NCBI GenBank assembly: GCA_963817525.1
Contig: CAWFOU010000007.1
Coordinates: forward strand, 608,001-672,000
Length of the DNA: 64,000 nt
Direction: 5' to 3'
Source: an uncultured archaeon
Lineage (GTDB): Archaea > Thermoproteota > Nitrososphaeria > Nitrososphaerales > Gagatemarchaeaceae
The notes below the pieces were generated by a model. That model had not been told where the DNA came from. It saw only the letters and a list, made by a program, of their open reading frames with translations, and ran no database searches. The position numbers were made by a program, and so were the translations under genes. Positions 48,644-60,315 of this stretch are shown here, one piece after another (position 1 is the stretch's first letter; every line of letters starts with the position of its first letter).

Positions 48644-49684
48644 CTAACCCGCTCGCCGCGGAATCTGGCCCACTGTGAGCTCGATCCACTTCGGCCTGTG
48701 CAAAAAGTCGTTCATCCCCCTCCCCTCGAGCAGCCCCACGAGCGCGTCCGCCTGAGGGATCGAGAGGACCGGCTTGCTGAAGGTGAAGCCGTCTATGGAG
48801 ATCCTCGGACAGGCGGTCTGGACGAAGGCCTCGATGTGCATGTACTGAGCGAGCCTGTCAGGCGTGATGTCCCGCATCGCGAGCTGGACCACCTTCTTCC
48901 CGTTGGCCTGAAGCCTGCTGGTGATCCATTTCGAGCGCCCTACCATCATCTGGCCCTCCTTCAGGCCGGTGACCACGCCGAAGACCTTCGCGTCGAGGGC
49001 CTTGTAGACGGCGAGTACCGCTCTCTTCTGCCTCTCCTCGGCCTCCTCCTTCATGTCGCGCATCTCCTCGAGGTACGGGTCGAGGAGGTAGGTCGGCTTC
49101 CCCGTCGCCAGCGCGACGCCCACGGCATGGAACTCGCTCTGTCCCAAGTAGCAGAACGCGTCGACCTGCTCTGTGTTCTCGAACACCGTCGAAAAGTCGC
49201 ACCCGAACGTCTGGCTCCCGAGGAGGAGGTTGTTCTTCCTGCCGAGGTGGACCTCGAACCCGGCCTCCTCGAGCTGCCTCTTCACGGGCCCGAGCTGGTC
49301 AAGGTGCTGGCTGAACGTGGCTAGCCCTATCCGCTTGTACTTTGAGAGCAGGGGAATCGACCTCTGGACGACCGCGTCGAACCTGATGTCGTCCTTTGCG
49401 TCCACCAGGTAAGTGTAGTCGCCGACCTCCAAGACGGAGGCGTTGTGCCCGATGTGCAAGGCGAGGCTGGCGCCGAGCCTCTCGACCTCGTTGTCCACGG
49501 TGTCGCATATCCCAAAGCAGCTGTCTCCGACCAGCACGCACTGGACGCCGTACTTGAGCTCGACGACCCGCATCAGCTCCATGGTCTGCCTCAGGAGGCC
49601 GCCGGGGGCGTTCAGGATTATCCTGGTCGGGTGCTTCTCCTCGATGAGGTTGAAGACCCGCTCTGTGTCGATCTTTACGGTCAA
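48644..49684 (-). CDS. dph2: Diphthamide biosynthesis protein Dph2
   Basis: CFGICD, GQ.FGCD, K.GQ, TACPRISID. Confidence 0.93.
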   Translation of the reverse strand: MTVKIDTERVFNLIEEKHPTRIILNAPGGLLRQTMELMRVVELKYGVQCVLVGDSCFGICDTVDNEVERLGASLALHIGHNASVLEVGDYTYLVDAKDDIRFDAVVQRSIPLLSKYKRIGLATFSQHLDQLGPVKRQLEEAGFEVHLGRKNNLLLGSQTFGCDFSTVFENTEQVDAFCYLGQSEFHAVGVALATGKPTYLLDPYLEEMRDMKEEAEERQKRAVLAVYKALDAKVFGVVTGLKEGQMMVGRSKWITSRLQANGKKVVQLAMRDITPDRLAQYMHIEAFVQTACPRISIDGFTFSKPVLSIPQADALVGLLEGRGMNDFLHRPKWIELTVGQIPRRAG

Positions 49685-50196
49685 GCAGGAACAGCCGCTT
49701 CTGTCTTCTTTAGCTGCGTGACGACTATCTTGTATGTGAACGGGAGCTTCGTGGTCGCCGCCTTCAGGGCCGCCTTGGCCTTCTCGAGGTTCTCCGCCTT
49801 GATCAGGATGTCCAGTATTACGCTGCCGATGTCGACTCGCGCCGCGACCCCTATAGGCTTCCCGAACGCCTTGCGCATCCCCTCCTGCAGCCTGTCCGCT
49901 CCTGCGGTGGCGATCATCTTGTTCTCGCGCATCACCACAAATGGGTACGAGACCACCCGAAGGTAGAACGCCTCCTCGCCGACGAGGGCGAGCTTCTTGC
50001 TCGCCGCGACCCTCGCCGCCTCTAGCGCGTTGCTCCTTATCTGGAGCCGGTTCAAGGAGACCAGCTCAAGCTTGTAATCGTAATCGGCGCTGAACTTGCC
50101 TGTGGTGAACCTCGCGACCTTGGGGTTGGGGGTGCCAGGTGCGAACTTCTTGTTGTAAAACATTGACTTCGCTTCGCGATAATTTGCTCCGTGGAC
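49681..50196 (-). CDS. rpl10e: Ribosomal protein L10e/uL16
   Basis: IRSNALEAAR, RENKMIATAGADRLQEGMRKAFGKP; N-terminus (V)HGANYR begins at GTC after SD GAGGTGA. Confidence 0.93.
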   Translation of the reverse strand, partial: VHGANYREAKSMFYNKKFAPGTPNPKVARFTTGKFSADYDYKLELVSLNRLQIRSNALEAARVAASKKLALVGEEAFYLRVVSYPFVVMRENKMIATAGADRLQEGMRKAFGKPIGVAARVDIGSVILDILIKAENLEKAKAALKAATTKLPFTYKIVVTQLKKTEAAVPA

Positions 50197-50445
50197 CCCC
50201 CTTCACCTCTTCAAGACGGCCACCTTGGCGACCCCTAATTAATGTTGACTAATCCGCTCTGGCAGCCATGCTAGTGGCTTCCTAAATCCACCCAGCGAAG
50301 TACCCTGTTTTATCAACGGCCGCAATTCTACGCATTGTCGATTGCGTCCAAACTCAAAAGAATTGCCCTGTCTACCCGCGAGTTATGGGTGCCTCGTAGT
50401 TTGGGCAGGCCCTTCTATTCCAATAGTTCCACTCGGAGATAGTCC

Positions 50446-50517
50446 GTTCGGACGGCTCTGGTGCGTCTTAGGGAGATAGGCCCTCGAGAACTTATGGTGG
50501 TGCATCTCGGGAGATGG
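50446..50517 (+). repeat. 72-bp inverted repeat, left copy (partner 51226-51297)
   Basis: 66/72 identity to the reverse complement of 51226-51297, aligned by eye. Confidence 0.9.
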
Positions 50518-50606
50518 CATCTCAGCGCTGGTAGTGGCCCCCATCGGCACCGTTCGGACAAAGATGTATTAGTTACTAACTGACCCTGATAGAATCGTGC
50601 CGCCTT

Positions 50607-51209
50607 ATGCCATCGAGAACAGCGGTCGGAACAGTGGCAATCGTCCTCGGCATCGTGATCGTAATTGCAGCAACAGGCGCCATCTTCTATGTCAACGAAT
50701 CAGCTACCAATCCAGTCCAAATACACACACTGTCAACGACTTCCATCACCTCAGTCAGGACAATAGTTTCCAGTCAGTCCGCGACATCAAGTTCAGCCGC
50801 GACCTCCGCAGATTCTGAAACGTGCTACCAAGGCTCAGTGCCCACGAACACCTCGGCGTCTGGCAGCCAATCGGCATACAGCAGAACCGTCTTCAATGTC
50901 ACACAGGAATTCAATTCGTGGAGTTGGATGTCCTTGTCCACCTTCAAGGTCGGGTCGTATACCTTCGTCACTACAAACCCCGCAACGACCCAGGGCGTCA
51001 CCACGTTGGAGCCTCAACTATTCTTCAATGTGACGAACAGTCAAGGCCAGATGCAAACAACCAGTTTTACGAATCTGGGCGGCTGGAACGGCCAAGTGTG
51101 GCCTCCTGACATGGGGCTTCAGGCAGCGCTCTTCGGAGGGGATGCGACCATACAGTGGCTCTTTCTTTGCAACAGTCAGAATGTCTTCTTGGAGGTAACA
51201 ACGCAGTAG
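50607..51209 (+). CDS. Membrane-anchored/secreted Ser/Thr-rich protein
   Basis: N-terminal TM, S/T linker, beta-rich domain with a Cys pair. Confidence 0.75.
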   Translation: MPSRTAVGTVAIVLGIVIVIAATGAIFYVNESATNPVQIHTLSTTSITSVRTIVSSQSATSSSAATSADSETCYQGSVPTNTSASGSQSAYSRTVFNVTQEFNSWSWMSLSTFKVGSYTFVTTNPATTQGVTTLEPQLFFNVTNSQGQMQTTSFTNLGGWNGQVWPPDMGLQAALFGGDATIQWLFLCNSQNVFLEVTTQ

Positions 51210-51225
51210 GTTAACAGAATCTTTT

Positions 51226-51297
51226 CCATCTCCCGAGTTGCACCAGCATAAGTTCTCGAGGGCCTATCTCCCGAAGACGCACTAGAGCCGTTCGGAC
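51226..51297 (-). repeat. 72-bp inverted repeat, right copy
   Basis: See 50446-50517. Confidence 0.9.
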
Positions 51298-51345
51298 AAA
51301 ACTATTAGTTTAGGCGGGCTATCCAATCACTATCGAGGCCCTAGC

Positions 51346-52095
51346 ATGGCGCAGACTGTCAATGGCAACAAGAGTCTTGTTTACGTAGCTTCGGCAATAC
51401 TCGCCGCTGGAATTCTTGTTTCTGCCGGACTTATTCTCGTCCCTACATCGCACTCCACGACGACCGTGACGTCCACTTCCACGACGACCTCGACGACGAC
51501 TCTAACGACGTACCCCGGGCTCCTCGCCTATTGTGCCTCCGCGAACTCCTACACACAACATGAGAACGTGGATATGGTGGTCGGGACCAGCCCTCCGGCG
51601 ATCCTCTGCCTTCAGCTCTACGATATCAACTCGACCTCCCCTATCGTAGTCGACACTGCCAGTCTAGTTTCGGTCCAGGGTTCCGAGCAGGGATTCGTCG
51701 GCGGAGGGAATTTCACGGTCATCGCGAGTCAGGACCAACTCACACTGGGGGGACCCTCGAACCTCAATGAAGGCACGATTGTCGCGTACGCCATCACGGC
51801 CAGACCAGGCGCGAACGGCACCTACTCGCTGCAGATTGGCGGTTGGCATCTCATAGGCATAGATGAGGAGCTGTGCCCGTTCTACGGTCAAGTCATCGCG
51901 GGGACGGGGCAGCCCAACTATTTTCGCGGCTTGGATGGCGGTGGCTCCCCCTGCACAGTCATCAATACTCTGCCAAATGGCTCAGTGAAGCTAAGCCCGG
52001 CAGAGGAGTCTGAGATTCCAGGAGTAGCAAACGGCTATGTCATGAACAGCACCCTCTACTTCAAAGCCATCGACGTCGTCGATTCAACACAATGA
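51346..52095 (+). CDS. Membrane-anchored Thr-rich surface protein, paralog 1
   Basis: TM, poly-T linker, PAILCLQLY, GGGNFT..SQ.QLTLGGPSN..EGT.VAYAITA.PGA. Confidence 0.8.
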   Translation: MAQTVNGNKSLVYVASAILAAGILVSAGLILVPTSHSTTTVTSTSTTTSTTTLTTYPGLLAYCASANSYTQHENVDMVVGTSPPAILCLQLYDINSTSPIVVDTASLVSVQGSEQGFVGGGNFTVIASQDQLTLGGPSNLNEGTIVAYAITARPGANGTYSLQIGGWHLIGIDEELCPFYGQVIAGTGQPNYFRGLDGGGSPCTVINTLPNGSVKLSPAEESEIPGVANGYVMNSTLYFKAIDVVDSTQ

Positions 52096-52110
52096 ATGTG
52101 TGAGAGCACT

Positions 52111-52899
52111 ATGCCATTACAGGTGAATCGTAGGAGAAGCATCGGTTACGTCATCGCAGCGATGGTTGTCGCCGGAATCCTCGTGTCAACAACGCTCATC
52201 CTCGTCCCTCGGTCGCTCTCCACGACCACCACAGTGTATGCGACCGCGACAGAGACGACCACATTGACCGCTACACAGACGATGACGCTCGCAAACGTGT
52301 CAACCCGAAGCGCGGGAATCAACGCCTCAAACAGCGCAGCGCTCCTCGCAGCTTGCGCGTCCACGCACTCTACATCAACGGGCTACGTGGTTATCGGGCC
52401 TAGCTCTCCCGCGATTGTCTGTCTCCAGCTCTACGAATTCAACTCGAACTCGTCCATCGACCTGAACACCACGGGTCTCCTTTCAGTCGGAGGTTCAGAG
52501 GAGGAGTTCGGGCCGAGCATCGGCGGAGGCAACTTCACCATTCAGACGAGCCAGGGTCAGCTGACACTGGGAGGCCCCTCCAACGCCGATGAAGGCACGA
52601 CTGTCGCGTACGCCATCACGGCCAAGCCAGGGGCGAGCGGGCAGTACGCCTTGTTAATAGACGGCTGGAATGTCCCGGGCGAGGGAGGTGCGCCGGAGGA
52701 ATGTCCAAGCTGGGGAGTGCTCTTCGCAGGGAATGGTGAGCCCGACTACGCTATGAACGGGCCGATAGGCTCGTGCATAACTATTGTTTCATCAGCTCCG
52801 CCGAGTACACCGCAGCCTTTCTCAATCCCGGGAGTCAACTACGTCACGAGCAACACTCTCTACTTCAATGTAGTCGCCGTCATTGATTCAGTCCAATGA
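52111..52899 (+). CDS. Membrane-anchored Thr-rich surface protein, paralog 2
   Basis: Same blocks as 51346-52095 (PAIVCLQLY, GGGNFT..LTLGGPSN..EGT.VAYAITA, TLYF..DS.Q). Confidence 0.8.
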   Translation: MPLQVNRRRSIGYVIAAMVVAGILVSTTLILVPRSLSTTTTVYATATETTTLTATQTMTLANVSTRSAGINASNSAALLAACASTHSTSTGYVVIGPSSPAIVCLQLYEFNSNSSIDLNTTGLLSVGGSEEEFGPSIGGGNFTIQTSQGQLTLGGPSNADEGTTVAYAITAKPGASGQYALLIDGWNVPGEGGAPEECPSWGVLFAGNGEPDYAMNGPIGSCITIVSSAPPSTPQPFSIPGVNYVTSNTLYFNVVAVIDSVQ

Positions 52900-52957
52900 A
52901 ACCCTAGGAATGAACAGCGACTGAAAGTGCGCGGCGGGATTTTTCGCCGGAAGAATC

Positions 52958-54199
52958 TCAGGCCAAGTCAAATTCGCGTGTTTGTCGCTGCCCACCATCA
53001 TGAGGAGCCATCATCGGGTGCCTCCTTAACGGAAACTCATCAGGGGGCCAAATAACCGATGCGTAGAAACACCCTTTGCAGTATGCTTGCGCGTTGAAAA
53101 ACTCGAAGGCTCTTTGAGCTTCACGAAGCTTCTGGCCAACCAAGTAGGGCTGAATCTCCCTGAGAACGCGCAAGGCCCTGATCCCTGCGACGCCCTTCCT
53201 CCACAGCGGCTGCCAGCCGAGCGGCCTCTCCTTTGGCTTCTCCGGCCTCGGAAGCCCACATAAATCGGCAAATTGGAAGACCGGCTGCGGATCAGTCATC
53301 CTGAGATCCAAATCAACCGTAGTGGTGTCAAACTTCTTCAGGTAATGGGAGCCGATGCGAACCTCGCCCTGCACCAAGCCTCCTACCCATGCTCGATCAT
53401 CGTCCGATTGGATAACAACCTCGGGAACTTTCCACTGATTCATTAGGTCTGAGCTATTGCGAACTTCTGGCCATACACGTAATGCATCATTCCGGTCCCT
53501 CCTGACGAGGGAATGGAGAAGCGGGTGTTCGAGGTAATTCTGCGGTGTAGTCGTCTCGTCGGCGGCCATTCGTAATCCACCTCGTTTCTTGGTTCTCCAC
53601 GGAAATTCACCGCGCGACCAGATGTCGAGATTCCCGAAGCACCCTGAATGGCTCCCATATGGAGAGAAGAAAGACAACGCCTTTTCCGCTTCTTTCAGCT
53701 TCTCGCCAAGCAAGAAAGGCTGTAGCTCCTGCAGAACTCTGAAGGCCCGCAGGCCCGAGACGTTCTTGTGCCAGTTGGGCTTCCAATCATGATTCTTGAC
53801 TGGTTTTGACGGGTGCGACAGCCCGACGTAGTCAGAAAACTTGAAGACGGGCTCAGGGTCGGTCATCGAAACGTCGATGTTGAGGCAGGTCACATCGTAT
53901 CGCGTGTAGAATCTGGCTTGGATGCATCCTTCCGCTTGGGTCAGCCCTGCGACCCAGCGTCTACCTGTGGTCGTGGGGATAATCACTTGCGGAATGTTGC
54001 GCTGCATGATTTCTCGCATCTGTGGCCGCCTGGACCACTCGTGCGGCGACTCAATCGCGAAGCGTTTCATGTGATAACGGACCGTCCCGGGAGTCCGATA
54101 TCCCAGCCTGTCCGCTGCCTCCGCCAGGCCCTTGCTCGTCCTCACGACCTCTTCGAAATACGGTAGCCACTGCGGGCTCCCAAAGGGCGGCCGGGGCAT
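52958..54199 (-). CDS. HTH plus tandemly duplicated LAGLIDADG-like domain protein
   Basis: N-terminal LAEAADRLGY..GTVRYHMKR; two ~150-aa repeats (WVAGLTQAEG..MTDP..LQPFLLGEK and WVGGLVQGEV..MTDP..IQPYLVGQK). Confidence 0.75.
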   Translation of the reverse strand: MPRPPFGSPQWLPYFEEVVRTSKGLAEAADRLGYRTPGTVRYHMKRFAIESPHEWSRRPQMREIMQRNIPQVIIPTTTGRRWVAGLTQAEGCIQARFYTRYDVTCLNIDVSMTDPEPVFKFSDYVGLSHPSKPVKNHDWKPNWHKNVSGLRAFRVLQELQPFLLGEKLKEAEKALSFFSPYGSHSGCFGNLDIWSRGEFPWRTKKRGGLRMAADETTTPQNYLEHPLLHSLVRRDRNDALRVWPEVRNSSDLMNQWKVPEVVIQSDDDRAWVGGLVQGEVRIGSHYLKKFDTTTVDLDLRMTDPQPVFQFADLCGLPRPEKPKERPLGWQPLWRKGVAGIRALRVLREIQPYLVGQKLREAQRAFEFFNAQAYCKGCFYASVIWPPDEFPLRRHPMMAPHDGGQRQTREFDLA

Positions 54200-54639
54200 C
54201 AGCTAGCGCCTCCCAGCCTCGTTATGGCCGAGCCCAACTCATCGATCGAATACGCCACGCCGTCGGCGTGGGCCAGGACTTCGCGGAGCACCCTTGCGAG
54301 CGTGACGGGTTCCTCGTGGGGCGCCTCGGCGAGCGCGACGCAGCGGATCCCCGGGTGCGAGCCCTTCAGGCGTTTGAACTTCACGTCGATGAACGCGGCG
54401 TTCCTCTCCATCCAGCCCAGAGCGACCCCCCTCCTTCCGATGGTCTTCCAGCATTCTAGGACCGTCCTGCGGTCGCTCAGGAAAAAGTCCACCACGATCA
54501 GCCTGCCCCCGTTGGCGAAGACCGCGTGGGTGAGGTGGGTAAGGCCCAGCTCGAGGAGGAGGTCGCGGACCTGCCTTTCCTGCTCCGTGAGGGGTATCAG
54601 GGCGTGCGCTCGGGTCATCCATTTTGAAGACGGGTTCAT
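54199..54639 (-). CDS. PD-(D/E)xK/Vsr-like nuclease-fold protein
   Basis: QERQVRDLL..LG...IVVDFFL...VLECW; TGATG overlap with the LAGLIDADG gene. Confidence 0.6.
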   Translation of the reverse strand: MNPSSKWMTRAHALIPLTEQERQVRDLLLELGLTHLTHAVFANGGRLIVVDFFLSDRRTVLECWKTIGRRGVALGWMERNAAFIDVKFKRLKGSHPGIRCVALAEAPHEEPVTLARVLREVLAHADGVAYSIDELGSAITRLGGAS

Positions 54640-54779
54640 TGGAATAGTAGGATTATGGGCTATTTAATCACCACAAGGGTTTTATCTTGCTTAGTTATCT
54701 AATAGAGGCGATATTCTAGCTAATTTGGTCTTTATGCCCGAGAACGCTTATCTTCCCAAGGCTCCAAGCAGTTCGCGGG

Positions 54780-57579
54780 TTGAGTCCGAGGCTCGCGGAG
54801 CCCGCCCCACTTGCAAAGACCGAGTTCCTTACTGTTGATCAGAGAGGCTCTTGGAGCCCCGCCCAAGTCGCCGACAGAATCTACGACAGTTCGCGCACCT
54901 ACAGGAAAGAGCATTGCGCCATCTTCATCGACCCAGACTCGGTCGATGACTTTCTCCACGCCTCAGGTCTACAAGTGGACTTTCTAGACCCAGACGAAAA
55001 CTCGCACTGGACGGGAGTGCAAAGACCAGTCCACCCGAAGCTGAAGCCCATTCTGGTTGGAGACTATGATGAGTGGTTTCGCTGGTTCATGAAGTGGCAG
55101 AGGTTCAACGCTTTCCACATCATCGTCCTCATCAACCCAATCCGGAGGATGATTGATGACGACAGGAGGGGGTACTATGACGGCCTCCTCACGCGCCTGC
55201 TCAACAAGCAAGGCGTCCACAGAATCATCATTGTCGAAGAGGAGCGCTTCCAGCCGACGCTCAGAAGATGGATGGGCGGCGCCGTCCCCGGTGAGGAGGA
55301 CCAAGAGCTCAAGGCGAAGTTCGGGCAGAAGCAGTTCAGGGATGCGATATGCTCCATTCTCTATGGCACGCTCCTCTCCAACAGAAACCTCTCTGCTGCT
55401 GCCGCGAGTACCTTGTTCTCGAAGGTGAACCCAGCCTGGGAGCCGGCGCTCCAGGACCTGAAGCGCAAGGCTTTCCAGGTCGCAAGGACGCACCGCTGGT
55501 TCTACTCACTGGGGGACTATGGGAAGGAGATAGTCGAGGGCCTCGAGACGCCGGCGGTTCGGAAAACACTCGAGGATCCGCAGCAGTCGATTCCACCCCT
55601 GTTCAAGAGGAGAGGCAAGAGGTGCCCCTCGGAGCTCAACCAGGAATGGCTCGAGGGCCTCACGCAGTCCCTCCTTGACTCCCAAGGCTGGTTCACGGTC
55701 GCGGGCCTCTACCAGCACGTCGACGCCCAGACGCAGAGGGTGATCCAGACGTCAGGTTATCGCCCCCAGATTTTCAACGATCACTTTGACGACGAGCTGC
55801 CTAGCGAGATGCATGTCTGGGCGCCGAGTCGCCCACTCCTGCGTGGCATCGCCGAGAGGCTCGCGCAGGAGGGGAAGCTGCAGAAGGCCACCTGGGTAAG
55901 GGAGATCGGGCGGCCCACCACCGTCTATCACCTGCCAGGACAGCTGCCGTTCGACGCCAAGAACCGGTGCGGGCAGTGCGCTTTCTACGTCCCCTTGAGG
56001 CGCCAGTGCAGAATCTGGTGGCTCCTCGACAAGTCCTACGGCTCCAGATACGAAAGGTGGGGGAGGGATGGGGCTCGCCCGCTCTCGGGCTTCGAGATTC
56101 ACAAGATGAGGAACTCCTGGCGCATAGGCCCACATTCGTCCGCGTGCTCGAAGTTCGTCGACAAGAAGAAGGACTACAGCCGGCTCTCACTCCCCGAGCT
56201 CTGCGACGTGTGCCAAGAACGGCTTCCCGAGACGCCGCCAAAGTGGTCGATGGTGGTCTGCGGCACCTGCAGGACCCGATACTTCAGGCTCAGGCAAGGC
56301 AAGGTGAAGGTGCTCACGAGCTACGAGCACGAGTTCGAGAAGCGCTACCACGAGCTGGCGGGCGTAGACCGAGCATCGGACATTAAGCGCCTGATTGAGG
56401 AAAGGCAGGGCTCTGCGGGAAGCATCGTGGAGCAGGCCATATTCGACGAGCGCCGCCACGCGGGCGTCGACGACCCAGACTCTGCCCCCAAGACGGTGAT
56501 GCTGTTCCCCGGCGACAGGATGCTCGCGAGGGACGGGAGGCTCTACGTCTTCAAGAGGCGCAATGTGGAGTCGCTCCCCCTCGCGGGCAGCACAATAATC
56601 GACCACGGCGGCGTGGTGAACGAGGAGCAGAGGGGCGCCCTAGAGAGCGCCGGGACGACCGTGAGGTCAATCTCGAAGTCACCGGGTCTCAACAGCACCG
56701 GAGGGCCTCCGCCAAAGAGGTACGACATCGCCCCCGCCGTGGATAAGGTGGTCGGCGAGTACCCGGAGTTCCTGCGCCGGATGTCCCTCGCGATGGTCCA
56801 GAGCTCGATTCACGCCACGGAGCGCGTCGGCTCCCTCGCCCACATGTCGGAGGACGACGTGCAGACCTTCACCAGAAAGCAAAGGATGTACGCGCGACGT
56901 CTCGAGCGCGCGCCTCCAACCAGGTTCTTGGTCTATGAGGCCCTATCCATGAAGGAGTACTGGAACTGCTACTACCTGGTGCTCAAGGGCGCGTTTCAGA
57001 GGTTCGGCCCGCGCAAGAAGGCCCGGTTCGTGAGGGAGTTCGTCACAAACCCCGCGGGGAGGGCAAGGGGCTACACCGCGGTTGACGCGGCGATAAACTA
57101 CCTTCACCAGAGGAGATTCTTCAAGGCGAGGGCGGTCAACGTCCAGCTCGGCCTCGATTTCAACCCGGGAGAGGGATTCCTCCACAGGAAGAGGTGGAAC
57201 CCCGAAGGCCTCGGGCTGATCTTTGACCTCATCGACCCCTTCAAGTTCGCCGACAGAGAGAAGCTGCTCGGGGCCATCCTGGACGTCAGCGTGAACTGGA
57301 GGGACTTTTACGGCGCGACCGACAGGTCCGGGGCGCGGTTCTACTACCCAAAAGCCGGAGGCCATCGGTGTCCTCGAAGCGGTTGGCGAGGCGGCAGACA
57401 ATATGCCTGTGAATTACCAAGGAGAGAAAATTACGCTCGTAGAGGCTTACCGAAACGCCGTCTTGAGGCTAATCCAGAACCTGCAAGGCGGCACGCCAGC
57501 CTCATTCACACCCTTCGTCTTCCAAGGGTCAAATTCAGCGCTCAAGAGGAATGGAACGCCCCAGGCGGAGGCGCAATGA
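54780..57579 (+). CDS. cas1: Large Cas1-fusion protein (~932 aa after correcting one extra A at 57350-57353)
   Basis: Cas1 beta domain from 56490 (VMLFPGDRMLARDGRLYV..SLPL..VV....LESAG.TV); helical domain YEALSMKEYW, DAAINYL, GLDFNPGEGFLH, LIFDLIDPFK. A Cas1-like tail (VNYQGEKITL..LIQNL.G..FTPF) lies in the +1 frame. Confidence 0.82.
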
Positions 57580-57586
57580 ACCCAAG
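57555..57586 (+). repeat. Direct repeat R1, containing the corrected cas1 stop
   Basis: AACGCCCCAGGCGGAGGCGCAATGAACCCAAG; 28/33 aligned columns match R3. Confidence 0.7.
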
Positions 57587-57759
57587 CACGGCGATGCCCT
57601 GCAACTTCATTTTAGCGAAACATAGTGGAGCTCTTGGAGTTGGATTGGAGAGTACACCTTTCCGCGCCTTGTATGAATCGTTACAGAGAAATTTTCGGGG
57701 GGGGGGAAATAGTGGAAAATCCCATCAATGGATATAGTTAGCCCTTTATTCTCGGAGGT

Positions 57760-59649
57760 ATGGCGCCCGCGTCTCCTCTAGCCTCTATGCTGCATATCCA
57801 TGGAGAAAAAGTAAACCGGGTCTCAAAGGCAGTCCTACTATTGGCCCTACTGGCCGTCGCAGCGGTGTTTCTGATTTCCCCCGCTTCGGTAAACGCGGAG
57901 AGCGTGGGGACATGGAACCAGACCACCAGCTTCCCTGTTGCTGGTACCTCCTGCACCGCATACGCCGGGTACGCTTACTGCGTCGATGGCCAATATTCCT
58001 ACTACGGCCAGCTCACATCGTCAGGCATCGCTTCCTGGACGGCCACCACCAGCTATCCGGACACTGTAGACGCGGACCAGACGTGCGCCGCATCAGCAGG
58101 ATACATCTATTGCGTTGGGGGGACACCCACCTCAGGCGGCTCCGCTCCCAGCGATTACGCGTATTATGCTACCGCTACTGCATCTGGGATAGGGGCCTGG
58201 ATCGAGACCTCTGACTATCCGACCTTCATAACCGGTGTCTCATGCGTGATCTCGGCAGGATACATCTACTGCGCGGGAGGCGAGACGGGCGATGGCACCT
58301 TACAAACAGGCTTCGCCGCGTACGCGCCGGTCTCCTCGTCAGGCATCGGGACGTGGACGACCACCACTACGTATCCCCACCAAGTAGTTTCCCCCAACTG
58401 CGTGACTTCGAGTAGATACATCTACTGCGCCGGCGGGATGGGGGTCGTAGACGTCGGCCCCGAAAATACGACCGCTTACGCCGCCCTCTCCTCCTCGGGA
58501 ATAGGTCCTTGGACCGAGGGCCCACTCTATCCGTCGACGATCAGCGGATATGGGGAGTCGCCTTATTCCTGTGTCGCGTCGGACGGCTACATGTACTGCA
58601 TCGGCGCATACAGTTCCTATGAGAGCTCACCTGAGGTCAACTACGCCTCGCTCTCCTCGTCCGGAATCGGGGCATGGACGGCCACGACCGCCTATCCAGG
58701 CACTTCGTCGAGTGGTGACACATGCACTTCATCGGGCGGCTACATCTATTGCGTGGGAGGCGACGGAAGCACCTCTTCAAGTGCCACAGTCTATTACGCT
58801 CAGATAACCGCACCCCCATCTTCGCAGCTGACTGTGACAAGCCAGGACACCAGCGGCAACACGATAAGCGGCTACTACACAGTGCTCAATCAGAGCAACG
58901 CTATTGTGGCCTCAGGATTCACGCCGTACACATTCACTCTGAACGACGGCCAAACCTATACGGTGCAAGTCGACAACTATGGCTCCTGCACGTTCTCGCA
59001 TTGGCTCGACACGGGAAGCACGACGTCAAGCAGGACGGTGTCCATCACCAGCAACACCCAGTACACGGCCGTGTACAGCTGCGCTTCGAGCAGCGGCGGC
59101 CCGTCGAGCGTGACCGTGGACACGGTCAACCAGGATGGCGGCGCGATCACCGGCTACAACATCGCGCTCTATGGGTCGGGTGGTAATTTCATCTCTAGCG
59201 GGTTCTCGCCGGCGAGCTTCAGCACGACCGCGGGCGAGGGGTACGAGCTTGTGGCGGACAGCTACGGGAGCTGCACCTTCAGCCAGTGGTCAAACGGCGC
59301 GAGCGACCCGATGTCCTTCACCGCGACGAGCTCGGCGCAGACTTTCACTGCGGTCTACAACTGCACCAGCACGAACGAGTCCACCATCAACGTCTCCACG
59401 GTGAACTCGTCCGGCACTCCGATCAGCGGATACTACATCACCCTCTGGCAGGATGGCGCTCAGCTTGGGAGCTGCTTCTCCGCCTGCTCGTTCACCGTGG
59501 ACGGCGGACAGTCTTACCAGGTCTTGGCCGACTCCTATGGCTCCGAGACGTTCAGCCACTGGCAGAACGACGGTTCAACGGGCTACGAGACGGTCATGGT
59601 CCCGATCAGCAGCACGACGATCGACCTGACAGCGGTCTACAGTCCATAG
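57760..59649 (+). CDS. Secreted surface protein: ~6 Kelch-like beta-propeller repeats plus 3 beta-sandwich repeats
   Basis: Signal peptide; repeats C...GYIYC.GG / SSSGIG.WT.TT.YP; C-terminal repeats GF.P..FT..GQ.Y.V..D.YG..F.HW. Confidence 0.85.
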   Translation: MAPASPLASMLHIHGEKVNRVSKAVLLLALLAVAAVFLISPASVNAESVGTWNQTTSFPVAGTSCTAYAGYAYCVDGQYSYYGQLTSSGIASWTATTSYPDTVDADQTCAASAGYIYCVGGTPTSGGSAPSDYAYYATATASGIGAWIETSDYPTFITGVSCVISAGYIYCAGGETGDGTLQTGFAAYAPVSSSGIGTWTTTTTYPHQVVSPNCVTSSRYIYCAGGMGVVDVGPENTTAYAALSSSGIGPWTEGPLYPSTISGYGESPYSCVASDGYMYCIGAYSSYESSPEVNYASLSSSGIGAWTATTAYPGTSSSGDTCTSSGGYIYCVGGDGSTSSSATVYYAQITAPPSSQLTVTSQDTSGNTISGYYTVLNQSNAIVASGFTPYTFTLNDGQTYTVQVDNYGSCTFSHWLDTGSTTSSRTVSITSNTQYTAVYSCASSSGGPSSVTVDTVNQDGGAITGYNIALYGSGGNFISSGFSPASFSTTAGEGYELVADSYGSCTFSQWSNGASDPMSFTATSSAQTFTAVYNCTSTNESTINVSTVNSSGTPISGYYITLWQDGAQLGSCFSACSFTVDGGQSYQVLADSYGSETFSHWQNDGSTGYETVMVPISSTTIDLTAVYSP

Positions 59650-59681
59650 CGGAAGAAGAAGCAGCCGCACGCGGAGGTGGT

Positions 59682-59722
59682 CCCCCGGCGGGCCAATGAA
59701 CCCAGCCAATCTTTAGTTAGCG
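59682..59722 (+). repeat. Degenerate direct repeat R2
   Basis: CCCCCGGCGGGCCAATGAACCCAG matches R1 at 22/26 columns; the following AATCTTTAGTTAGCG matches the R3 flank AAGCCTTAATTAGCG (12/15). Confidence 0.55.
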
Positions 59723-59770
59723 CCGCAATTCCGACAGCCGTAAATATTCTCCAGGAGATCATCATACGAC

Positions 59771-60121
59771 TTGGACAGCCGACGGAGCTGGGCAATAATT
59801 GGAGCAAACCTAGACAAACTCGTGGCCGTGATGCTGACCGTTCAGAAGGGAGCTTCGGTCGATGTCTTTTGCGATCCGACGGGAGCGAATCTATCCGTCG
59901 GCAGACCGTCCGGCGCGGCGAACATCAAACTCTGCGCAGTTAACGCCCCCGACCTCGAGGGTGGCTACGGTGTGAAATCACGTGGTGACGGATTCACGAA
60001 TGACGACGGGGAGGAGATTTCAAAGGAACAATTGCCAGCCTACTTGGTGCGGTACATCACAGGGGCGAAGGATGGAGGCGCGGAATGGGGCTGGGAGTTC
60101 AAGTTGAGCGGCGACGGGTGA
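59771..60121 (+). CDS. Hypothetical protein (~116 aa)
   Basis: ORF between R2 and R3 with protein-like composition; TATA-like element upstream. Confidence 0.5.
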   Translation: MDSRRSWAIIGANLDKLVAVMLTVQKGASVDVFCDPTGANLSVGRPSGAANIKLCAVNAPDLEGGYGVKSRGDGFTNDDGEEISKEQLPAYLVRYITGAKDGGAEWGWEFKLSGDG

Positions 60122-60241
60122 TGGTGCAGCTATCTGCTGCATATTTGGCCCGAAACGACGCCAGTTAACAACACGTACAGTTACCGTGTCGGACGAATGG
60201 GGCAGGCTGTCGTGCTTCACTTCACCATGACCAACTGATCA

Positions 60242-60273
60242 AATGCCCCGGCGGAGGCGCAACTAACCCGAAG
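60242..60273 (+). repeat. Direct repeat R3, just upstream of the methyltransferase promoter
   Basis: AATGCCCCGGCGGAGGCGCAACTAACCCGAAG. Confidence 0.7.
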
Positions 60274-60315
60274 GCCATCAAGCCTTAATTAGCGTCAAGC
60301 CTCAGAAAGTGGTTC

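Follow-up and report, generated by a model that had tools for sequence, protein, structure and literature searches.

A conserved 22-bp word in gene arrays beside a giant Cas1-like gene of Nitrososphaerota, a possible insertion site for gene-sized DNA

A 64,000-nt stretch of contig CAWFOU010000007.1 (assembly GCA_963817525.1, positions 608,001 to 672,000), from an uncultured archaeon of the Gagatemarchaeaceae and referred to here as the window, carries three direct repeats in one orientation, the first of which overlaps the 3' end of a giant gene with a Cas1-like C-terminal domain, and whole genes lie between successive copies. The word that the copies share, CGGCGGAGGCGCAATGAACCC, recurs in 11 of the 19 Nitrososphaerota genomes sampled (the genome of the window counted among them), in arrays that enclose different genes in different genomes. 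We suggest, with a confidence that stops just short of even, that this motif is a site of insertion or recombination for gene-sized DNA, taken up in one orientation and served by a module of the Cas1-like protein and a nuclease encoded next to it.

The copies in the window, all read directly in the sequence, and the box that follows the first of them are:
57559-57583, plus strand: R1, the first motif copy, CCCCAGGCGGAGGCGCAATGAACCC (pattern and profile match)
57612-57617, plus strand: TTAGCG within a degenerate promoter-like box, CTTCATTTTAGCGAA, 28 nt past R1
59682-59703, plus strand: R2, a degenerate copy of the motif with 3 nt deleted, CCCCCGGCGGGCCAATGAACCC (gapped match)
60245-60269, plus strand: R3, the last motif copy, GCCCCGGCGGAGGCGCAACTAACCC (pattern and profile match)

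A preliminary description of this DNA had reported three shared repeats after a cas1 gene, each followed by TTAGCG, and pattern, repeat-finder, and profile scans bear this out, R2 being degenerate. With at most 3 mismatches allowed, R1 and R3 are the sole matches to a degenerate 25-mer in the 64 kb (0.00 expected from 100 shuffles), and a 17-mer core is found in the window only at R1, R2, and R3. The repeat finder puts all three copies in one group (19 nt, 84%; R1 and R3, 24 nt, 88%). Profile E-values are 5e-6 for R1 and 9.5e-5 for R3; R2, because 3 nt are deleted, gives a partial match at E 0.83, and was accepted because it matches once a gap is allowed (CGGCGG + GC + CAATGAACCC), because it lies between genes, and because of its flank. 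Pattern and profile scans found 0 copies in the remaining 61 kb of the window, outside 57.5-60.3 kb. TTAGCG indeed follows every copy (57612-57617, 59717-59722, and 60289-60294) and occurs only 11 times in the window, both strands together. R1 and R2 are spaced 2120 nt apart and R2 and R3 566 nt apart, and each interval holds one gene, as had been described: a Kelch-repeat gene (629 aa) between R1 and R2, and a 116-aa open reading frame (ORF) between R2 and R3.

For comparison, genome contigs were searched with a profile of a 30-member Cas1-like family alignment, which yielded 26 related loci from 18 other genomes. All of these loci were thus retrieved through the Cas1-like gene, and together with the window they make up the 549 kb searched for the motif. 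Twenty loci carry a Cas1-like gene of at least 500 residues and form the denominator for the counts of partner genes and of motif absence. L002 and L003 lie on one contig and overlap, and the only motif copy of L003 is the L002 copy in the overlap. In these 549 kb the 17-mer core (at most 3 mismatches) has 31 distinct instances, where ~1.3 are expected by our own estimate, which assumes uniform base composition. The profile, built from 27 copies with R1 and R3 included, gives the consensus cccCGGCGGAGGCGCAATGAACCC for a site of ~21-25 bp. Of the 21 positions of the word, 19 have an information content of 1.2-2.0 bits and the remaining two of 0.9 and 0.7 bits; directly past CCC it drops to 0.4 bits. 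The word is common to two Cas1-like clades with only 30-35% protein identity between them, and is therefore under strong constraint.

Elsewhere as in the window, the motif forms arrays, of 2-5 copies in the same orientation, ~0.4-5 kb apart, beside Cas1-like genes or their remnants. All copies point one way in the window (3/3), L001 (4/4), L004 (3/3), L013 (4/4), L025 (3/3), and L002, L016, and L026 (2/2 each), the exception being L006 with four minus copies and one plus copy. Compared with a uniform distribution, copies are also shifted toward the Cas1-like gene (median distance 2.4 kb, Kolmogorov-Smirnov p 0.002, for 28 copies that are not independent of each other). Four copies, with R1 additional to them, are at most 100 nt from a Cas1-like stop codon, and a copy abuts that stop codon in the window, L001, L002, L019, and L020, in either orientation.

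The genes enclosed by the copies differ at what is otherwise a conserved site. The genomes share a backbone of PCNA, PriS, ..., Dph2, and rpl10e, followed by RNA methyltransferase, SpoU, KsgA, ..., Pus10, and SRP54, and in the window, L001, L002, and L004 an island stands between rpl10e and the methyltransferase gene. The border features in the window, together with a box next to R2, are:
49681-50163, minus strand: ribosomal protein L10e gene (rpl10e), the left-border core gene, with a promoter-like box, CCTAATTAA, at 50234-50242
59705-59724, plus strand: copy of the methyltransferase promoter box, GCCAATCTTTAGTTAGCGCC, which aligns with CGCCAATCTTTAATTAGCGTC, found in L001 and L020 upstream of this gene
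60285-60294, plus strand: TTAATTAGCG box, likely the TATA-type promoter of the methyltransferase gene, conserved in the window, L001, L002, and the motif-less L020
60316-61503, plus strand: RNA methyltransferase gene (UPF0020/Trm14-like), the right-border core gene, 85-87% identical to L001 and L002

Identity of rpl10e is 86-93% among these four loci, and that of the methyltransferase is 85-87% in L001 and L002 and 77% over a truncated ORF in L004. What the motif copies enclose is the Kelch gene plus the 116-aa gene in the window, a PQQ-propeller gene (398 aa, downstream) plus a 208-aa gene (upstream) in L001, genes of 261 and 327 aa in L002, and, in L004, genes of 253 and 202 aa that lie upstream of the module. 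The proposal that different cassettes might be found at the orthologous site is therefore upheld, as content varies between conserved flanks (rpl10e 93%, methyltransferase 85-87%). An empty allele had been proposed as well, and here the outcome is divided: the rpl10e-methyltransferase site is empty in L011 and L019, and an allele with the Cas1-like gene, one repeat, the methyltransferase gene, and zero cassettes was seen in none of the loci. In the two empty sites the gap between the genes is 117 nt (L011:20149-20266) and 207 nt (L019:1204-1411), with no motif and with a single palindromic box, CCCTTAATTAAGC. L020 has one gene at this site, again with no motif, and keeps the TTAATTAGCGTC box. 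R3 had been placed at the methyltransferase promoter; the adjoining box, with its TTAGCG, is core sequence and is not part of the repeat. As the sites in L011, L019, and L020 are without the motif, the motif is not the core promoter; the box is, and the motif comes with the island.

The boxes themselves bear on how the island arose. Those of the form TTAATTAA occur once in empty sites and once on each side of the island when the site is occupied (50234-50242 and 60285-60294 in the window). Read as a test for target-site duplication, the count of one TTAATTAAG box in empty and two in occupied sites may represent a ~13-bp target duplication of the whole island, or simply two promoters, as independent promoters would also fit. 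Since the flank of R2 matches the methyltransferase promoter box, a unit of motif plus box (~40-55 bp) was, judging from this alignment, probably duplicated at least once in the window, although the box at R2 could be an independent promoter as well.

The gene that ends in R1 was predicted as follows:
54780-57579, plus strand: Cas1-like gene, ~930 aa, with ~560 N-terminal residues containing Cys clusters and a Cas1-like C-terminal domain
57350-57353, plus strand: AAAA run with a one-base frameshift (one extra base), from comparison with relatives

Because of this frameshift, the longest ORF (54780-57737, 985 aa, without a Pfam match at E<=0.01) reads through R1. The frame at 57295-57579 matches the C-termini of relatives, and in this homologous frame R1 does hold the stop of the gene, as had been claimed: it codes for the final residues (PQAEAQ) and the stop codon (TGA, 57577-57579). 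Two homologs, P0003 (..PAEAR) and P0005 (..PEAR), end alike, and the motif variant in L006 could encode a tail of the P0003/P0005 type in the same frame. The frameshift may be a homopolymer error in a long-read assembly or a pseudogenising mutation. Elsewhere, the Cas1-like copy of L001 (L001:9998-12731) is broken into ORFs of 86, 463, and 365 aa, and in L001, L002, and L006 the LAGLIDADG gene described below is broken in two; these split genes, too, may reflect long-read homopolymer errors or real decay.

The label cas1 used in the preliminary description holds in the sense of Cas1-like, for a distant gene of ~930 aa whose copy in the window has no Pfam match. The family consists of proteins of roughly 900 aa, found almost only in Nitrososphaerota metagenome bins. 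PF01867 matches 11 of its 30 members (best E 2e-7), and the PADLOC Cas1 model matches residues 714-855 of P0002 (E 1.5e-3). Four residues, E720, H802, D816, and D819, are invariant in all 30 sequences. The passages on Cas1 in PMC4046053 name four active-site residues for the E. coli protein, and by motif pattern the invariant E, H, D, and D appear to fit its E141, H208, D218, and D221. The 560-aa N-terminal region has no family match beyond Zn-ribbon-type matches in 3 of the 30 members, and an ESM Atlas search with the N-terminal 600 residues gave no usable match. Plasmid and phage collections held no match to the Cas1-like gene.

Two further proteins are encoded beside the Cas1-like gene, and a short word separates it from them:
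52958-54199, minus strand: 413-aa protein with an N-terminal helix-turn-helix (HTH)-like region and two LAGLIDADG domains (predicted local distance difference test (pLDDT) of the model 82.8)
54199-54639, minus strand: 146-aa protein with a predicted PD-(D/E)xK (restriction-endonuclease-like) fold, divergent from the Cas1-like gene (model pLDDT 91.7)
54670-54686, plus strand: conserved word ACCACAAGGGTTTTATC in the gap that separates the nuclease gene from the divergent Cas1-like gene, from intergenic comparison

By Foldseek, the model of the 146-aa protein resembles the Can2 nuclease domain (E 2e-4), Hef/XPF, I-Bth0305I, Vsr, XisH, and Cas4, and D51, E62, C63, and E105 are invariant in its family. 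By tblastn, 19 of the 20 loci whose Cas1-like gene has at least 500 residues encode it upstream of that gene, the exception being L022; that of L016 was recognised only through its likeness to the ORF of L017. A complex prediction for this nuclease with residues 66-917 of the Cas1-like protein P0006 scored 0.29 (mark 0.32), which weighs neither way on binding. The 413-aa model has 84 PDB matches at E<=1e-3 (Foldseek probability 1.00, best E 3e-9), and those listed are all LAGLIDADG proteins (homing endonucleases, engineered meganucleases, and one maturase). At the sequence level its matches are weak, with LAGLIDADG_3 found in 2 of 23 members and weak Pfam HTH matches in the N-terminal helical region; E90 and E279, the acidic residues of the two LAGLIDADG motifs, are invariant in all 23 sequences. 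The 413-aa protein is present in the window, L001, L002, L004, L006, L007, L008, L010, and L017, and is fused with the 146-aa nuclease in L004 and P0136. Monomeric LAGLIDADG enzymes recognise asymmetric sites of ~20-22 bp, and the motif core (21-22 bp, asymmetric), in an island that encodes such a predicted protein, would be about the size of such a site. PADLOC and NCBIfam scans of the trio and of the cassette proteins gave nothing beyond weak Cas1 matches. In both main clades a word ACCACAA(A/G)GGTTTTATC adjoins a TATA-like box between the divergent genes, and it lies ~50-130 nt upstream of the Cas1-like start in L010-L013, L015, and L017-L019. From its position and conservation, the word at 54670-54686 is probably an operator or promoter element, shared as an operator across clades.

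The motif itself behaves as a linear DNA word, as it has no consensus structure, no Rfam match, and no hairpin: RNAalifold found 0 consensus pairs in 28 copies, Rfam scans (by gathering threshold and by E-value) gave no match to the motif, with only two tRNAs elsewhere and two chance-level matches, and single-stranded DNA folding was no better than that of shuffles in 6 of 6 copies (z 0.08-1.36). Several candidate identities were discarded. A structured RNA or known RNA family is ruled out by the Rfam and RNAalifold results, and an attC-like hairpin by the shuffle-equal folding. There is no tRNA near the repeats that could have left a fragment as attachment (att) site, and a small reverse-strand ORF through the motif is rejected by a reading frame that varies among copies.

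In the mechanism that we propose, the island between the divergent housekeeping genes rpl10e and RNA methyltransferase would be organised around a constant core, formed by the giant Cas1-like protein and the divergent PD-(D/E)xK-fold nuclease and, in this clade, also by the HTH-double-LAGLIDADG protein. This module would recognise the site and insert foreign or relocated segments of 0.4-5 kb in one orientation. Every insertion would leave a copy of the site on either side, and serial insertions would therefore build an array. In one version, a Cas1-type integration would duplicate the site, which the promoter-box copy next to R2 and the boxes on either side of the island would support; in the other, the DNA would be cut and rejoined, or exchanged in Campbell fashion, at the core. 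We infer that the site is cut and joined, that integration is the work of the Cas1-like protein, and that the target undergoes duplication and not exchange. Serial cassette capture driven by Cas1, as first suggested for this locus, gains from the variable cassettes, the empty sites, the lack of further copies in the window, and the box copy at R2, and loses from the loci and the stretches of variable DNA without a motif.

A number of observations weigh against this proposal. Of the 20 loci whose Cas1-like gene has at least 500 residues, 11 showed no copy of the motif in the flanks (L005, L007, L009-L012, L015, and L021-L024). An all-against-all blastn of intergenic sequences in these loci, aimed at an alternative cognate motif, returned nothing but conserved blocks of tRNA size and the operator that lies upstream of the Cas1-like gene. 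In L007 and L010, variable genes stand between the Cas1-like and methyltransferase genes without any motif, and the motif is likewise absent from the 7.4 kb of variable DNA downstream in L004 and from 50.2-52.9 kb (2.7 kb) of the window. The motif and the LAGLIDADG gene overlap only in part: L013, L016, and L019 have the motif without the gene, and L007, L008, and L010 the gene without the motif. No terminal inverted repeats at cassette or island ends were found among the longest 25 of 145 inverted pairs, and no event of gain or loss between near-identical genomes was seen in the sample. The homology to Cas1 is remote, the window copy having no Pfam match and three sequence searches of PDB having found no Cas1, and the gene in the window is frameshifted. 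The 116-aa gene is a broadly conserved family of the lineage and therefore need not be foreign. Finally, flanking arms that by eye sorted convincingly by array position, in a way that would separate Campbell-type exchange from duplication, failed when scored (among 11 first copies the 5' arm was found in 4 and the 3' arm in 5, and among 10 last copies in 4 and 2, respectively).

The arrays could also have arisen without the Cas1-like protein, by cut-and-rejoin or Campbell-type exchange, which we regard as rather unlikely. The LAGLIDADG protein, the PD-(D/E)xK nuclease, or both would then cleave the 22-bp word, both where it stands in the chromosome and in a cassette, circular or linear; the resulting ends would be joined by homing-like ligation or repair, and the Cas1-like protein would serve some other role. 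The double-LAGLIDADG fold with both acidic motif residues invariant, its fusion to the nuclease in L004 and P0136, and the asymmetry of the ~22-bp site all agree with such a scheme, and copies in one orientation at both ends of an insert are expected from reciprocal exchange. However, there is no LAGLIDADG gene within 10 kb of the arrays in L013, L016, L019, L025, and L026, and the constant partner of the arrays is instead the Cas1-like/nuclease pair. An active homing enzyme would, moreover, go on cutting the intact copies in its own genome, and the duplicated promoter box at R2 is unexpected from an exchange inside the core.

It is similarly improbable, in our view, that the motif is an operator or boundary element and not a recombination site, with the HTH-LAGLIDADG protein acting, for example, as a WhiA-like regulator, in a hypervariable island of surface and accessory genes turned over by ordinary horizontal transfer and homologous recombination. 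An operator should travel with its own gene, whereas here unrelated genes across genomes share the border word, and these genes lie on either strand and at variable distances from it. The strict one-way arrays, and the way in which copies repeatedly adjoin the stop codon of the Cas1-like gene in either orientation, also fit a joint better than an operator. Still, the motif is always intergenic and near promoter-like boxes, beta-propeller genes recur beside Cas1-like genes (window, L001, L003, and L004), some variable genes have no motif (L004, L007, and L010), and the 116-aa gene is an ordinary lineage gene, all of which an operator in a hypervariable island would accommodate.

Least probable by far is a dispersed repeat of the repetitive extragenic palindromic (REP) or miniature inverted-repeat transposable element (MITE) type that has piled up in a flexible region and seems linked to Cas1 only through Cas1-centred sampling. 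Our sample is blind to the rest of the genomes, and in one genome the arrays L025 and L026 lie far from the full-length Cas1-like gene (L009), yet each of these two arrays has a Cas1 C-terminal remnant beside it, copies cluster toward the Cas1-like gene within loci, the other 61 kb of the window hold 0 copies, hairpins or palindromes such as REP elements have are absent, and the word is conserved across genera, unlike typical MITEs.

Set beside known systems, the insertion-site reading that we prefer would describe something that looks as if it works like an integron or a tandem casposon array. Integrons, archaeal ones included, consist of IntI, attI, and arrays of attC cassettes, as outlined in the relevant passages of PMC9668308. 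The likeness lies in gene-sized cassettes in tandem with a recurring site and a conserved enzyme gene adjoining, in cargo with toxin-antitoxin pairs and many unknowns, and in arrays distant from the enzyme gene, like clusters of attC sites lacking integrases (CALINs). The differences are that domain scans of 14 window ORFs and 95 locus ORFs found no tyrosine recombinase (PF00589) such as IntI, and no PolB or Cas2 either, that the site in the window is a conserved linear word whereas attC is an imperfect hairpin defined by structure, and that the cassette genes here lie on both strands in cassettes of up to 4-5 kb. Casposons are described in the portion of PMC4046053 concerned with them as Cas1-solo transposons. 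They resemble the present system in having a Cas1-family protein with a full catalytic set (here mapped by motif pattern) and no CRISPR (short palindromic repeats, clustered and regularly interspaced) locus, in inserting at intergenic or gene-end sites of housekeeping regions, and in the direct repeats around inserts, with two TTAATTA boxes flanking the island and one in empty sites. They differ in that PolB and terminal inverted repeats were not found here, in the size of the protein (~900 aa, with its 560-aa N-terminal region), in the repeats, which here are a conserved cross-genus word and in casposons a duplicated arbitrary target, and in the partners, here a PD-(D/E)xK nuclease and a LAGLIDADG protein.

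The resemblance to CRISPR extends to direct repeats of 22-25 bp in one orientation beside a cas1-like gene, with the first repeat at the gene end. Cas4 is a PD-(D/E)xK nuclease partner in CRISPR adaptation, and a nuclease of this fold is the partner here as well. In contrast to CRISPR arrays, the "spacers" are 0.5-2.1 kb with whole genes rather than ~25-70 bp, R1 and R3 are 84-88% alike and R2 has a 3-nt deletion where CRISPR repeats are near-identical and regularly spaced, scans of the 14 window ORFs detected neither cas2 nor effector genes, and the motif has no repeat hairpin or RNA signal. A double-LAGLIDADG protein encoded beside an asymmetric ~22-bp word recalls homing endonucleases, and site copies in the same orientation at every joint recall tandem integrative elements formed by serial att integration. 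Unlike in either, intact sites persist beside the enzyme gene, and there is no intron or intein context; nor was an integrase of the tyrosine or serine type, as integrative elements have, found in the ORFs scanned. Lacking the defining features of each, the arrays are neither CRISPR arrays nor casposons nor integrons. A doubtful but possible extension is that they represent a third Cas1-family system, in addition to CRISPR and casposons, of soil Nitrososphaerota, in which a giant Cas1-like integrase and a PD-(D/E)xK nuclease, often with a LAGLIDADG targeting protein, insert entire genes at a conserved 22-bp repeat, which they duplicate, to form integron-like arrays.

The remaining features of the island in the window are its cassettes and its left part:
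50164-52957, no strand assigned: left part of the island, of lower G+C, with three ORFs that match no Pfam family (one of 200 aa, and two paralogs of 249 and 267 aa) and without the motif
57760-59649, plus strand: cassette 1, 629-aa protein with an N-terminal hydrophobic segment, Kelch-like repeats (Kelch_1 E 1e-4), and three C-terminal repeats of ~90 aa
59771-60121, plus strand: cassette 2, 116-aa conserved hypothetical protein with 79 homologs at 47-97% identity

The cassette 1 protein has its sole relative among the loci in L003:12776-15409 (43%), and the 116-aa gene was not found in any of the 26 related loci. Large beta-propeller (Kelch or PQQ) genes adjoin Cas1-like genes, on either strand, in four genomes (window 57760-59649, L001:12874-14070, L003:12776-15409, and L004:17937-19664), and may be a favoured cargo or functionally linked. 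Other arrays carry PIN+MazE pairs, an ABC transporter, winged HTH regulators, GNAT, RidA, DUF1294, and many unknowns, with genes on both strands and at variable distance from the motif, a content that looks like the cargo of mobile cassettes. In the left part of the island, 51346-52095 and 52096-52899 are tandem paralogs (44-45% identity, no Pfam match), whose sole relative among the loci is L002:13001-13786 (30-34%), inside a cassette of L002.

Several observations concern the distribution of the Cas1-like gene. Modules or remnants of it occupy three backbone sites, between rpl10e and the methyltransferase gene, beside SRP54, and between PCNA and PriS (drawn from L002/L003; L016, L017, L015, L020, and L025; and L011, L013, L019, and L026). 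One genome has two convergent full-length copies ~12 kb apart with the methyltransferase-to-SRP54 block between them. In L017, a remnant at the rpl10e-methyltransferase site (L017:18892-20056) consists of a single motif copy, part of the gene for the 146-aa nuclease, and a LAGLIDADG gene with only one domain; it has no Cas1-like gene, a full copy of which lies ~6.5 kb away beside SRP54. C-terminal Cas1-like fragments (45-264 aa) stand beside motif arrays at L014:9974-10768, L020:10004-10468, L025:10001-10135, and L026:10001-10141, and it looks as if arrays outlive the Cas1-like gene. L021-L024 form a separate Cas1-like clade, whose match to the query is confined to residues 355-857 and whose flanks contain no motif; the intergenic blocks in their vicinity, 55-75 nt long and 90-96% conserved between genomes, are possibly tRNA genes.

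A full-text literature search, in which subscription journals were not covered, returned no description of the Cas1-like family, the gene trio, or the motif. If the insertion-site reading is true, the system would be a platform for gene capture built on a Cas1-family enzyme instead of a tyrosine recombinase, and would widen the known activities of Cas1-type integrases. It would also offer a natural model for the growth of repeat arrays by target duplication, which bears on the origin of CRISPR, and a sequence-specific means of inserting DNA of kilobase size, for which a 22-bp site is defined and three proteins are candidates. Should the arrays indeed represent a third Cas1-family system, they would be a living analogue of the step between casposon target duplication and the CRISPR array. 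Under the tamer readings, too, two results stand: a conserved and undescribed trio of a Cas1-like protein, a PD-(D/E)xK nuclease, and an HTH-LAGLIDADG protein, and a 22-nt word that has stayed constant across Cas1-like clades with only 30-35% identity.

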